Below, piece by piece: positions 2,655-9,418 of a stretch of 20,000 bases of DNA. Made by a program: the position numbers and the translations under genes. The stretch is taken from IMG/VR virus record IMGVR_UViG_3300037504_000379; one strand, given 5' to 3'. Positions within the stretch are counted from its first letter, which is position 1; every line of letters starts with the position of its first letter. Source of the stretch: an uncultured virus (IMG/VR IMGVR_UViG_3300037504_000379) (Duplodnaviria > Heunggongvirae > Uroviricota > Caudoviricetes > Crassvirales). Below the pieces are notes generated by a model. The model had not been told where the DNA came from, did no database searches, and saw only the letters and a list, made by a program, of their open reading frames with translations.

Positions 2655-3146
2655 GTTGCTAACGGCACACAGCTATGAGTAGTGCGGGAATTACAGCACT
2701 GACTTTGATACGAGTATTAACCGCTCCCGCTTCTTTTTTAAGCGTGGGCATAAATATAAATAAAGATGAAAAAACAGATTACAGTAAAAGAAAGAAACAG
2801 TTGGGAAGGCGAAACATTTAATTATGTAATATATGTTATTCCCGAAGAAGAAAACCAAATTCGTGAAAAATGCGAGAAATATGGCGATGGTAGTTTAACG
2901 GTGCAAGAAACCAACTACACCGATGAAGAAATAAAAAAGATGAATGCAGCATCCAGCAACTTATATATGGACTTTATAGCACCGTATGAATTAAAGGGAA
3001 ACGCACTAAAAAAATGGGAAGAATTTGGTGATTGCTTTTACAAAGGTGTTGGTTTAACAAAATTAAAAGCGTTGGAAGAAAAAGAAGCACAGCACTAACC
3101 TTACTACGAGCTACGACACCCGCATTACTCATAGCTGGTGTTGTAG
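2655..3146 (+). repeat. attC-like site A2 whose loop contains a whole gene
   Basis: GTTGCTAAC - arm CAGCTATGAGTAGTGCGGG (2670-2688) / arm CCCGCATTACTCATAGCTG (3119-3137; 18/19 complementary) - GTTGTAG (3140). Confidence 0.8.
2766..3098 (+). CDS. hypothetical protein nested inside attC-like loop
   Basis: ORF track; flanked by GCAC-N9-TACGAG direct repeats at 2693-2714 and 3089-3110. Confidence 0.85.
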   Translation: MKKQITVKERNSWEGETFNYVIYVIPEEENQIREKCEKYGDGSLTVQETNYTDEEIKKMNAASSNLYMDFIAPYELKGNALKKWEEFGDCFYKGVGLTKLKALEEKEAQH

Positions 3147-3241: not shown

Positions 3242-3455
3242 GAAACAACAAAGGACGTTAAACGTATAATGTTTAATGTTGCTGAAGCTGAATTTAACAG
3301 TAAGCTTGTTCTTTTAAAATATAGAATTCAACCGGATAAATTTAACAGAGCCGCCTCTCTTTTATGGAAACTTATATTTAATTATTATAGTCCGCAAAAG
3401 GTAAAACCAACGAATTTATTTTAAACACTTAAAACCCATTATTATGAAAACACAA
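3242..3455 (+). repeat. 214-bp direct repeat, copy 2
   Basis: Aligns to 1659-1872. Confidence 0.95.
3269..3424 (+). CDS. hypothetical protein (51 aa), paralog of 1638..1841
   Basis: MFNVAEAEFNSKLVLLKYRIQPDKFNRAASLLWKLIFNYYSPQKVKPTNLF*. Confidence 0.65.
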   Translation: MFNVAEAEFNSKLVLLKYRIQPDKFNRAASLLWKLIFNYYSPQKVKPTNLF

Positions 3456-3881: not shown

Positions 3882-4559
3882 ATGAATACACAAGACTATC
3901 AAAGAACAGTAAAATTTAAGGATGACAATAATAATTTTGTCATTGCAGAAATAGAAGTAACTCATAGAAATGGTTATCCAGAGTTTACTATGAGTGGAGA
4001 ATACGAAGGAGCACACGGACAAGTTTTTGACCGTGTAAAGCCAGCCAAAACAAGTCAAAGAGAACTTATTGAGCTGTGGAATAAATGGCATATGGAACAA
4101 ATTAATGATCTTGGCTCCTTTGTGAAAAACTTAGATGCGTTACTAGACGACATTGAGGACGAACAAATAAGCAAACAAGTAACTGAAGAAGATTCAGAAT
4201 ATTTTGAATTATTTGATGAGCCGGAAACCGTTCACGCTCTTTCTCTAATGCTTGATTTGACTATTGAAGATATTGATACAATAGAAGAAGAAGGAGATAA
4301 TCGTTTCTCTATTGGTGGTATGGAATATCTTTGCGGCACTGGCGAGGAGATGGATGTATTATGGGATAAGGAGCTAGACCGTTGCTTAGAGGAAATTGTT
4401 TATCCCGATTTGCCTGACTATATGCAAATTTATTTTGATGATGAGGCTTGGAAAAGGGACGCGCGTATAGACGGCAGAGCACACATTTTAAATCGGTATG
4501 ATGGTTCAGAACTTAAATACAAACTAAATGATGTTTGGTATTTTGCATATAAACAATAA
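3882..4559 (+). CDS. highly acidic protein, possible ArdA-like antirestriction DNA mimic
   Basis: Very D/E-rich; C-terminal DLPDYMQIYFDDEAWKRD resembles the ArdA C-terminal 'LP..L..YFDYEA..RD' motif. Confidence 0.5.
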   Translation: MNTQDYQRTVKFKDDNNNFVIAEIEVTHRNGYPEFTMSGEYEGAHGQVFDRVKPAKTSQRELIELWNKWHMEQINDLGSFVKNLDALLDDIEDEQISKQVTEEDSEYFELFDEPETVHALSLMLDLTIEDIDTIEEEGDNRFSIGGMEYLCGTGEEMDVLWDKELDRCLEEIVYPDLPDYMQIYFDDEAWKRDARIDGRAHILNRYDGSELKYKLNDVWYFAYKQ

Positions 4560-4589
4560 AGGGTATTAATTTACCCTTTTCTTTCCTTT
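4558..4589 (+). terminator. intrinsic terminator
   Basis: AAAGGGTA-ttaatt-TACCCTTT followed by T-rich tract right after stop. Confidence 0.6.
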
Positions 4590-4643: not shown

Positions 4644-4946
4644 ATGAAAACAATAAATTGGCACAATGCTAAAAACAATGAAAAAGGATATTACAAAGAT
4701 GATAACGGAAAAGTCTTTTATTTTAATCCTGCTAGCTATTTAAATTTTACAAGTGATAACGATCAGGATTCATATGATTTTTGGATGACAAATACAGGAA
4801 CTTTAGTAAGAGATAAAAACGATTATTTTGTTTTCTCAGAAATTGGCATTAAAGACGCTTTACGGGATGCAGCCGAACATGAAACTGATATTTCTAACCT
4901 GGCTAAGAAGATGAAAGAGTATGCAGACGAAGTTTTACACGATTAA
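4644..4946 (+). CDS. hypothetical protein
   Basis: ORF track; ATTATG start. Confidence 0.8.
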   Translation: MKTINWHNAKNNEKGYYKDDNGKVFYFNPASYLNFTSDNDQDSYDFWMTNTGTLVRDKNDYFVFSEIGIKDALRDAAEHETDISNLAKKMKEYADEVLHD

Positions 4947-5040
4947 CGGTCACAATCCGTATAAATTCAGAGTGGAACGGAGCGTAAAAAGCTCTTTTAA
5001 TGAAGCTAATTAAATGTTAAACTAAAAAATTAAATGCTTT

Positions 5041-5477: not shown

Positions 5478-6530
5478 ATGGAAACAAAGGAATTGAGAAA
5501 GTTTTGCAAAAAAGCAAACAAATTAAAATCAACACTGCCAATAACAGACAATGTATTGATAAGTAAAGGGCAATTAATTGTAACAGACCTAAAACATTTT
5601 ATTGTTTATAATCCGCCCGAAATTGACCCAGACATTAAATGCTTAATCAATTTTAAAACGTTTAAAAAGATTGTTGACAAGGTAAAAACTGTTGATATTA
5701 TTCCTGGTGATACGGTAGAGCTGGAAACAGATAAAGGAATATACAGCCTAAAACAAGATCAGGGCGTTAATGATTTTCCGGGTTTTCCGAATGATAAGAT
5801 GAGTAGAAAAGACATTTTGTCAACTGAGGATGTAAAGACAATCAAGAGAGCCGTTAATTATACGTCCAGCGATGAGCTGAGGCCAGTAATGGAATGTGTG
5901 TTAATTGATGGTAACTATGTTGTTGCTACAGATGCACACAAACTTCTATATAAGAAAAGGAAGGGAAACGGACATAAATTTTTAATTAATAAGCTTGTTG
6001 CTTCTCTTTTTGAGGATAAACAACATGAAGTTTTTGCAGATGACAAAGATCAATGGATAGGTATTTGGGATAATTTATACGAATATTGGTATATGCAAGA
6101 ACAAGGAACATACCCACAATGGAAAGCAGTTATTCCAGATACAAGTAGCGTTCCGGCTACAGTAAGAGTAAAGGGCAAAGATTTTAAAGAAGCCCTGGAA
6201 GCAGCCGAACCAGTTTTGCCCCCTATTCCAAAGATGAGAATGTATGGCAATGTAAAGCAAAACAAACTCAATCTTTACACCAAAGACCTGGATTTTGATG
6301 TTAGTTATAATACAAATATTTCGGCCAGGTGCAAAGGTGAAAGCATGGTGATTGGAATAAATCAAAATTTTATGCTTCAGATTTTGAAAACGGAGAAATA
6401 CGAAGAAGTAGAGATAAAAATGTTTAATCCAGACAAAGCAATGATTATTAATGATGAGTTATTGCTTATGCCTGTTATGCTTGAGGAAATGGACGAAGAA
6501 CCAACGCCAAATCAACTGGCTGAAGCATAA
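5478..6530 (+). CDS. dnaN: DNA polymerase III beta subunit (sliding clamp)-like protein
   Basis: 350 aa; LPITDNVLI, TDL, SSDELRPVMECV, VATDAHKL, YPQWKAVIP, IGINQNFML and terminal LLMPV correspond to beta-clamp conserved blocks. Confidence 0.85.
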   Translation: METKELRKFCKKANKLKSTLPITDNVLISKGQLIVTDLKHFIVYNPPEIDPDIKCLINFKTFKKIVDKVKTVDIIPGDTVELETDKGIYSLKQDQGVNDFPGFPNDKMSRKDILSTEDVKTIKRAVNYTSSDELRPVMECVLIDGNYVVATDAHKLLYKKRKGNGHKFLINKLVASLFEDKQHEVFADDKDQWIGIWDNLYEYWYMQEQGTYPQWKAVIPDTSSVPATVRVKGKDFKEALEAAEPVLPPIPKMRMYGNVKQNKLNLYTKDLDFDVSYNTNISARCKGESMVIGINQNFMLQILKTEKYEEVEIKMFNPDKAMIINDELLLMPVMLEEMDEEPTPNQLAEA

Positions 6531-8552: not shown

Positions 8553-8694
8553 GAATATTCAACGTTTACGTATATGACCTATTTGGGATTTGAAATACTA
8601 ACTTATAAAAACGAAATAAAGATGAAAAACGATACAAAAAAACAAAATAGCACCGACACCCAAATGGGTTATAATACGGTGTTATCAGCCGTGC
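8553..8694 (+). repeat. attC-like site B1
   Basis: GAATATTCAAC - arm CGTATATGACCTATTTGGG (8569-8587) / arm CCCAAATGGGTTATAATACG (8659-8678) - GTTATCAGCCGTGC (8681). Confidence 0.8.
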
Positions 8695-8843
8695 TTTCAG
8701 ATAATTATCTGCACTTTGAAACGATTGATGGTGTTGACGGCTGTGTAAGAAAATGTGATTTAGAAAACTGCATTTATCAAACATCATGTCCATTTTTTGC
8801 AAAATGCTATGACAAAAAAAGAGCTGTGCTTTTGCATGGCTGA
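8622..8843 (+). CDS. small Cys-rich protein starting inside attC-like loop B1 and reading into the cassette
   Basis: MKNDTKKQNSTDTQMGYNTVLSAV... with C-x2-C-x4-C-x4-C-x5-C; stop TGA inside GGCTGATAAC. Confidence 0.6.
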   Translation: MKNDTKKQNSTDTQMGYNTVLSAVLSDNYLHFETIDGVDGCVRKCDLENCIYQTSCPFFAKCYDKKRAVLLHG

Positions 8844-9350
8844 TAACGGACAGCAATAAGAAACGTGCGAAATTACGCACAAAACTAAATACGAGTACTA
8901 ATTAAAAAATAAAAAAGCGATGGATTTACCAATGAGCAAAGATTACTCACAAATTAGAGTAGAATTAGGAATTAACGCACAGAAGTTTATACAACAGGTG
9001 CAAATTAACAACCAAACTATTGAAGATCAGATAGCAAAAGGCATAGAATTAGCTATAAATGACATAACCGAAGAGGATAATTTTGTGCAAGCAATACGGC
9101 ACAACACAAAGAAAGAGCTTGAAAATATAGTAAACCAAACCGTAATGAGCTGGGAGGTTAAAAACAAAATTACAAAACTGGTTGCAGAAAAGATTGAAGC
9201 GAAGGTAGAAGCCTATGCCGACCAAATTGCAGAGAAAGTAACAAGTAGCTTGAAATAGTGCGTGGGCTTTTATTTTTTAATTGCTCAATTACGCACCAAA
9301 GCTGATACGAGAACGAAAAGTAAGCATGTTTTTTATTGCATGTTAGCTTT
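8834..9350 (+). repeat. attC-like site B2 whose loop contains a whole gene
   Basis: GCATGGCTGATAAC - arm GCAATAAGAAACGTGC (8853-8868) / arm GCATGTTTTTTATTGC (9324-9339) - GTTAGCTTT (9342). Confidence 0.8.
8920..9258 (+). CDS. helical hypothetical protein nested inside attC-like loop
   Basis: ORF track; flanked by AATTACGCAC-N9-TACGAG direct repeats (8871-8895, 9287-9311). Confidence 0.85.
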   Translation: MDLPMSKDYSQIRVELGINAQKFIQQVQINNQTIEDQIAKGIELAINDITEEDNFVQAIRHNTKKELENIVNQTVMSWEVKNKITKLVAEKIEAKVEAYADQIAEKVTSSLK

Positions 9351-9418
9351 TCGTTTTAATGAAAGCTAACGAAAGTGTAAAGAACGTTTTAATGTTCTTT
9401 ACAGTGTGTTAAATGTTC
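9342..9418 (+). repeat. empty cassette plus minimal attC-like site B3, both with CGTTTTAATG loops
   Basis: GTTAGCTTT-T-CGTTTTAATG-AAAGCTAAC, then GAAAG-TGTAAAGAAC-GTTTTAAT-GTTCTTTACA-GTGT-GTTAAATGTTC. Confidence 0.8.

Follow-up and report, generated by a model that had tools for sequence, protein, structure and literature searches.

The 112-aa gene at 8920-9258 of the window (the whole 20-kb stretch of phage DNA analysed here) lies in the hairpin loop of an attC-like site, where it is enclosed by an inner frame made of an inverted repeat and two G-rich words. In other phages the same frame surrounds unrelated cargo: its arms covary, words line both edges, sequences diverge at ATG-G and at TAG, and the rest of the site is constant in length. 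On balance, we slightly favour a mechanism that exchanges the cargo of a loaded frame, between its two words and on single-stranded DNA, the whole cassette being moved by a tyrosine recombinase at AAC.

The window is the final part of a phage record that measures 76.6 kb and has direct terminal repeats. Its sequence was found in tidal-flat metagenome runs, and no RNA run is listed among those containing it. Since the same frame is present in a Flavobacteriales MAG (L054), the phage host is probably a member of the Bacteroidota. The loaded site, its surroundings and a second frame of the window are composed of the following parts:

8560-8847, + strand: upstream cassette, a 124-nt unloaded site and a 167-nt body.
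8842-8847, + strand: AAC core box, 5' end of the loaded attC-like site; its pairing with the body start at 8681 is perfect.
8844-9344, + strand: loaded attC-like site, 501 nt, with the 112-aa gene in its hairpin loop.
8853-8868, + strand: outer left arm; 14 Watson-Crick and 2 G-T pairs with 9324-9339 on the gene-sense strand.
8870-8899, + strand: loop repeat unit 1, a direct repeat of unit 2 (family D14).
8900-8914, + strand: left arm of the inner (third-tier) inverted repeat, doubling as the A-rich region 5' of the start codon.
8917-8923, + strand: left G-rich word GCGATGG with the start codon inside; other alleles diverge past 8923/8924.
8920-9258, + strand: cargo gene, 112 aa, of a conserved phage family whose start aligns with ATG 8932.
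9256-9267, + strand: TAG stop, one T and the right G-rich word GCGTGGGC (9260-9267); other alleles return to the frame sequence at 9254-9258.
9268-9282, + strand: right arm of the inner inverted repeat, pairing with 8900-8914.
9283-9323, + strand: loop repeat unit 2 (family D14).
9324-9344, + strand: outer right arm and GTT core.
9342-9370, + strand: empty cassette body, 29 nt, self-pairing.
9367-9410, + strand: short attC-like site of 44 nt, read from the sequence, at the array end; joints at 9368 in public contigs.
2729-3088, + strand: second inner frame, element A2; arms 2729-2738 and 3079-3088, left word 2742-2749, right word GCGTTGG at 3069-3075.

With our own detector, 13 attC-like sites and no IntI were found in this genome (G000). 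Elsewhere in the window, a 214-nt direct repeat with 90% identity flanks array A (1659-1872 and 3242-3455), a beta-clamp-like protein is encoded at 5478-6530, and a match to the Twister-P3 ribozyme was obtained at 4939-5013 (E 0.0018, below the gathering score). A second Twister-P3 match, in L124 (6660-6726), lies above the gathering score (E 1.8e-5). On contig C1 of this genome, positions 4193-4564 encode a DUF3127 protein.

The inner inverted repeat of the window had been placed at 8900-8918 and 9266-9282 in the original prediction. It is real, but its perfect stretch covers only 15 nt (8900-8914 and 9268-9282); segment 8915-8918 contributes a GC pair with 9266-9267, beyond a 2-base bulge. 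As predicted, TAG at 9256-9258 is followed by one T and then by GCGTGGGC, which occurs twice in the window for 0.04 occurrences expected. The GCG thought to be duplicated around the gene is part of a longer direct repeat of 7 nt that includes the ATG, GCGATGG (8917-8923) resembling GCGTGGG. This match between left and right words places the start codon inside the frame's own word. The other copy of GCGTGGGC, at 2742-2749, had been assigned to a small hairpin in loop A2; rather than a hairpin loop, this copy is the left word of the A2 frame, which surrounds an ORF at 2766-3098. A G-quadruplex formed by both words was considered and dropped, as the left word of the window has just GG.

The arms are of low complexity: when the two 45-nt flanks were shuffled 20,000 times, pairing of 10 nt arose in 111 cases. 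A 15-nt repeat was never obtained. Around ORFs located away from any site, the flanks carry a 15-nt repeat in 1 of 999 cases and a repeat of at least 10 nt in 10 of 999.

The frame was then surveyed in 1.09 Mb of sequence corresponding to 26 of the 33 viral records behind the loci, this genome and 13 loci. From this set, chosen by search patterns, 195 sites were parsed, 160 of them distinct, in 27 phage contigs and the 13 loci. The detector missed real elements (A2 of the window and the frames in L028, L032, L033, L035 and L040), so that the survey counts are lower bounds; because sites have common ancestry, they are not counts of independent events. The three counted sites retrieved with a start-codon pattern were also caught by outer-arm patterns that do not contain the inner frame.

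Pattern scans showed the window's frame around unrelated ORFs in L029, L031, L041, L047, L049, L050, L054, L061 and L169, and in an alignment of ten left halves the conserved block stops at ATGG. Of the 35 sites of at least 310 nt, 28 carry a perfect inner repeat, 10-18 nt long, and 24 distinct arms are represented. When arms were matched with partners from other sites, 82 of 1190 pairs reached 10 nt; for 25 of the 28 arms, no partner did better than their own. Inner arms are either A-rich or T-rich first, and compensated changes, including C-G pairs, are observed. Chance pairing of A/T-rich sequence is refuted by this covariation and, with a repeat in 28 of 35 long sites, is hardly conceivable. 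In 24 of the 28 frames, each inner edge bears a degenerate G-rich word, to be compared with 41 of 1236 ORF starts and 19 of 1236 ORF ends in the controls. Conservation of the motif across copies, to which the original prediction was tied, holds on the right side for this degenerate word (24 of 28 frames), whereas the exact octamer is found there in 4 of 28. The inner repeat and the words are a real, conserved and covarying inner frame.

Several widespread families are represented in the cargo: methyltransferases, HNH, Thg1 and PAPS reductase. Two further loaded loops of this genome (C1, 42937-43498 and 47342-48342) hold an HNH endonuclease and a DNA methyltransferase. Their left arms end T-rich, both stop codons lie within the right arm, and the HNH gene has the GTG of GCGTGGG as its start codon. 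Mosaics of outer arms and cargo are seen between L040 and L169 and between L006 and L008. In two close homologs, L006 (1860-1960) and L007 (2840-2940), the left half and both inner arms are kept, and loop unit 2 and the outer right arm are missing. Loops of more than 600 nt (G004, G010, G016, G022 and G000:47342) have in common a TTTGAAAAA-type stretch 5' of the right word, and their left word is often GGGAGGG; these two features possibly constitute an extra tier for long cargo.

The fit of the frame to the codons was measured in 25 single-gene loops, 3 of the 28 being excluded as they carry more than one ORF or much non-coding DNA. The start codon is at most 9 nt from the arm in 18 of the 25 loops and 13-46 nt away in 7; in 14 loops it is inside the left word. 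Near starts read ATGG in 15 of 18 cases, when ATG is followed by G in 328 of 1236 ORFs overall. The stop codon is located 0-14 nt before the arm in 13 loops and 20-26 nt before it in 4; in the remaining 8 it overlaps the arm or lies in or beyond it. TAG represents 11 of the 13 near stops versus 208 of 1236 overall. The proposed start-to-stop insertion is matched by a tight fit at both ends in 11 of the 25 loops; the other 14 have leaders, trailers or read-through. The 'exact' fit is also partly built in, since the words of the frame supply ATG-G and the AG of TAG. As an ATG is common to any gene, the informative letters are the G at 8923 and the TAG excess only. In the genes of cassette bodies, the commonest stop is 11-13 nt before the body end and TAG accounts for 19 of 39 near stops; the body stem therefore appears to supply stop letters too.

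Among the matches listed in public contigs, the frame was followed to 8923/8924 and then diverged in 8 of 8 runs (7 of 7 without X1, which may be the source of the window DNA itself), rejoining at 9254-9258 was seen in X2, X3 and X9, and some contigs depart earlier, at 8897, 8903, 8909 or 8916.

With 101 related proteins at E <0.001, itself included, the 112-aa ORF is a real gene. Pfam, NCBIfam, PHROGs and Atlas gave neither a function nor a family name, and the cultured-phage collection contained no relevant match to either half of the frame or to the protein. Most homologs start about 5 columns later. Since this family start aligns with ATG 8932, four codons inside the ORF, ATG 8920 may be regarded as the frame's, a leader of about 8 nt having presumably arrived with the gene. 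The gene is also found in other contexts: in cassette bodies with a tight frame (L009) or with 17-19-nt spacers (L004, L017, L018), without the inner frame (L010, L012) and without any frame. Its stop is TAG in 8 of 9 distinct complete framed homologs, the window being counted, and in 0 of 10 frame-free ones. On a poorly resolved tree of 20 rows, from which duplicates and fragments were left out (L001, L007, L013, L015, L024-L027), framed and free copies interleave with 5 changes; 46 of 500 shuffles were as low, hence clustering is not significant.

Subtraction of the inner module leaves 114-126 nt in all 28 sites (mean 120, sd 3.4), measured with search windows that permit about 100-170 nt, and the commonest class of unloaded sites is 111-127 nt long. 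Because this remainder is as long as an unloaded site, the inner stem is likely to maintain the geometry of the site by closing the gene off as a side loop. The 160 sites (G000-G029) fall into length classes of 44-56, 85-94, 111-127, 189-209, 266-280 and 342-370 nt. Sites of 180-400 nt show a period of about 80 nt, of a strength that none of 2000 uniform draws attained, and bodies show one of about 77 nt, which none of 1000 draws matched; shared ancestry inflates both tests. No length period was found for the 28 stem-bearing sites. Repeat-free inserts between G-rich words measure 142-147 nt in six unrelated loops. The protected unit of E. coli SSB is 145 nt. A single-strand-binding protein could, as a guess, act as a length ruler; its footprint is given as about 30-70 nt in the accessible text of PMC4652220.

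Loss of the right inner arm was simulated in silico for 20 of the 28 sites, those of up to 640 nt. On the antisense strand, where the control has 8.8 pairs, predicted outer pairing decreases from 8.7 to 3.9. On the gene-sense strand, it goes from 13.3 to 11.6 (control 13.9), with a drop of more than 5 pairs in 4 of the 20 sites, including the window. For the window itself, the values fall from 12.4 to 0.3 (antisense) and from 14.4 to 5.8 (gene-sense). Outer arms read on the gene-sense strand contain 288 G-T versus 16 A-C oppositions, the G-T pairs being counted among 2974 pairs. Given this excess and a contig joint at AACG, described below, it is probably the gene-sense strand that folds and recombines, which makes the weaker folding effect the relevant one. 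The role in geometry is better supported than a help in folding. Inner arms show 0 G-T in 453 aligned pairs, a count biased by the method, which selects cores as perfect. Loops are 47% A on the gene-sense strand. The fold of the whole element is not significant as antisense DNA (z -1.17); as RNA it reaches z -3.2, and the inner stem is absent from the predicted fold.

Core boxes of the YAAC ... GTTR type with paired arms and an unpaired spacer are found in the 160 distinct sites. Spacers are mostly of 5-6 nt against 2-3 nt, and 81 bulged bases are distributed over the 160 sites, in both arms, with none in the 16-bp arm of the window. In X4, a 151-nt contig of depth 2, position 8560 is joined to 9368 at a common AACG, and a second joint of the 8560/9368 type occurs in X2, with unread letters between. 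This points to a possible crossover at the gene-sense AAC box.

Following the suggestion of a linked recombinase, only a 191-aa tyrosine recombinase and RecA (C1, 41944-42939) were identified in this genome, where neither TIGR02249 nor SAM_4 has a match. The 191-aa tyrosine recombinase lies beside an IS605-type TnpB (C1, 50823-52931). In contrast, a SAM_4 tyrosine recombinase is present in 7 of 34 related records. In the viral records that carry one (6 of 6), the array ends in AAC shortly 5' of the recombinase gene, which follows directly on the same strand; L077 and L079-L083 have such genes, of 270-280 aa, just past the last AAC. No array-adjacent recombinase was seen in 28 of the 34 related records, many of which are fragments. 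The AAC end of the array beside the recombinase is a candidate attI-like platform. Three array-adjacent recombinases score 96-165 bits, in two stretches, versus an IntI cut-off of 265. From these sub-cut-off scores, they would be devoid of the integron-specific insertion.

Classical integrons, as described in the accessible parts of PMC5027507, PMC5371416 and PMC8946536, likewise have AAC...GTT boxes, folded arms, an unpaired spacer and a variable loop. They also have arrays of promoterless genes, with a tyrosine recombinase at one array end, as in the relatives of this phage. The differences concern the strand, G-T pairs and purine-rich loops being here on the gene-sense strand instead of the bottom strand (PMC5027507, same restriction), and the only usable joint, which is at the gene-sense AAC. 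Moreover, whole genes sit here in a loop within a second stem, and the recombinases of the relatives have 270-279 aa and score under the IntI cut-off. No inner frame supplying start and stop appears in those parts of the three papers. Judged from sequence, the array is integron-like but mirrored, with recombinases below the IntI threshold and the other strand apparently folded. Phage CALINs have already been described (PMC9892861, in its accessible text). Those of virulent phages, such as Polaribacter phage P12002L, resemble the present arrays by their attC-like clusters, the absence of an integron integrase and methyltransferase cargo. Unlike here, no inner repeat or G-rich word is seen in that accessible text, and the words 'nested' and 'VTS' are absent from the main text of PMC9892861; the CALIN lists in its supplement may include such sites. 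The Flavo-1 RNA motif (RF01705) is also a repeated intergenic hairpin of Flavobacteria. Its identity with the present sites was rejected: it has no match in G000, G013 and G022, and true hits in G030 differ in sequence. No Rfam family matches these sites. Sources for attC anatomy, the IntI insertion and Flavo-1 were the accessible parts of PMC8946536, PMC8138268 and PMC9723704.

Because the frame overlaps the start and often the stop codons of unrelated genes, these genes likely arrive by a swap of content. A new gene would replace the cargo between both words of an already loaded frame, through joins that would form on single-stranded DNA, at the words or close to them, with some slack. Selection would keep those joins whose left word provides an in-frame start, or that bring along a short leader with its own ATG, and whose stop is provided by the right word or arm. 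The inner stem would then close the gene off as a side loop, the surrounding site staying at about 120 nt, and the finished site with its body could be moved at the gene-sense AAC by a tyrosine recombinase of 270-280 aa. For this phage, the enzyme would be borrowed, since related phages carry one beside the array and this genome is without one. No close frame-free donor was found with which the junctions could be read to the base, and transfer may have gone either into frames or out of them.

Alternatively, a dedicated cassette-building activity could nick or start at the G-rich word, copy the gene, make the second arm by fold-back template switching and set the product between the loop units. 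The near-perfect inner arms look like the outcome of copying (0 G-T in 453, versus 288 of 2974 in outer arms), although the selection of perfect cores biases this comparison. The repeat-free inserts of 142-147 nt and the lack of the whole module in unloaded sites are also in favour of such an activity. But identical arms and words around unrelated genes are not expected from gene-by-gene copying and no candidate enzyme was found, which makes this explanation unlikely. A different view is that the inner repeat is an RNA element, either a 5'-3' pairing that hides the A-rich start region or a processing stem, and that cargo is swapped by ordinary homologous or illegitimate recombination, for instance with the phage RecA. 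The left arm is indeed immediately 5' of the start codon, folding is better for the gene-sense strand, RecA is encoded in the genome and the mosaics of outer arms and cargo would be accounted for. We nevertheless hold it to be improbable, given the T-rich-first polarity of the arms in several frames, the lack of G-U pairs in inner arms, the constant 120-nt remainder that links the stem to site geometry, and an RNA fold of the window predicted without the inner stem.

The original prediction, according to which an empty hairpin received a reverse-transcribed mRNA from start to stop and GCG was duplicated, now seems distinctly unlikely. The loops tight at both ends and the direct repetition of the word agree with it, and a folded strand of mRNA sense is compatible with RNA. 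An RNA route was also proposed for classical cassettes with group IIC-attC introns (PMC3001079, accessible text). That model addresses the same question, the joining of a bare ORF to a recombination site, but it needs an intron-encoded reverse transcriptase. RVT_1 (PF00078), the linked enzyme that capture by a group IIC-attC intron, a retron or a DGR would call for, was searched for and found neither in this genome nor in the 34 related records, many of them fragments. With an arm-word-arm pattern that covers the window's arm type only, 17 viral matches to an empty hairpin were obtained, 0 of them near site arms, and the 1.09 Mb contained no such match. L064, L068 and L072, unloaded sites with outer arms of the same family, have neither the repeat nor the motif. 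Some public-contig joints have unread letters between, with room for about 250-280 in two of them. Since these scans gave no empty hairpin in a site, and the 35 records no reverse transcriptase, insertion into an empty loop from RNA is unsupported, and templated capture from RNA has no direct evidence in its favour. The 7-nt word that includes the ATG, the 14 of 25 loops with leaders, trailers or read-through into the frame, and the 3 of 28 with more than one ORF or much non-coding DNA also argue against it. An empty precursor could be transient or reside in unsampled hosts, and a reverse transcriptase could come from the host. What survives of the capture idea is a conserved repeat and motif with unrelated genes joined at or near their start and stop; insertion into a pre-existing empty hairpin is left without support.

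A bolder version, to which we give little credence, is a dedicated capture machine run by phages and hosts. Coding sequences would be cut or copied in at two G-rich words that complete start and stop; unstemmed inserts would be sized by a single-strand-binding-protein ruler, in steps of about 38 and 80 nt; and the inner stem would lift this limit so that whole genes fit. If true, cassettes would here be seen in the making, in a factory that is not an integron. The origin of integron cassettes from bare ORFs is presented as an open question in the accessible parts of PMC5371416, PMC8618304 and PMC12901181. Large loops are described as an obstacle to the folding of attC, and how cassettes form de novo as largely unknown (PMC5371416; also PMC8618304, PMC12901181 and PMC8352920). 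In the openly accessible main literature searched, we found no description of genes in attC loops or of an inner frame. With one frame near-identical down to the base around many genes and junctions that can be mapped (after ATG-G and at TAG), cassette genesis becomes testable. The questions of a DNA or RNA donor, the role of the G-rich word, that of the inner stem and the length rule can all be put to the test.

The ORF at 8622-8843, in the upstream cassette, starts in the loop, reads on through the right arm and ends in the next body, as do ORFs at about 50 sites in related contigs. Of the 28 such read-through ORFs tested, 26 had no PHROG match. Because they run from loop to body, cassette shuffling would make chimeric proteins. 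This would explain many odd short chimeric proteins in the annotations of Bacteroidota phages, and exchange of cargo in the frame would explain a route by which accessory genes, such as methyltransferases, enter these phages.
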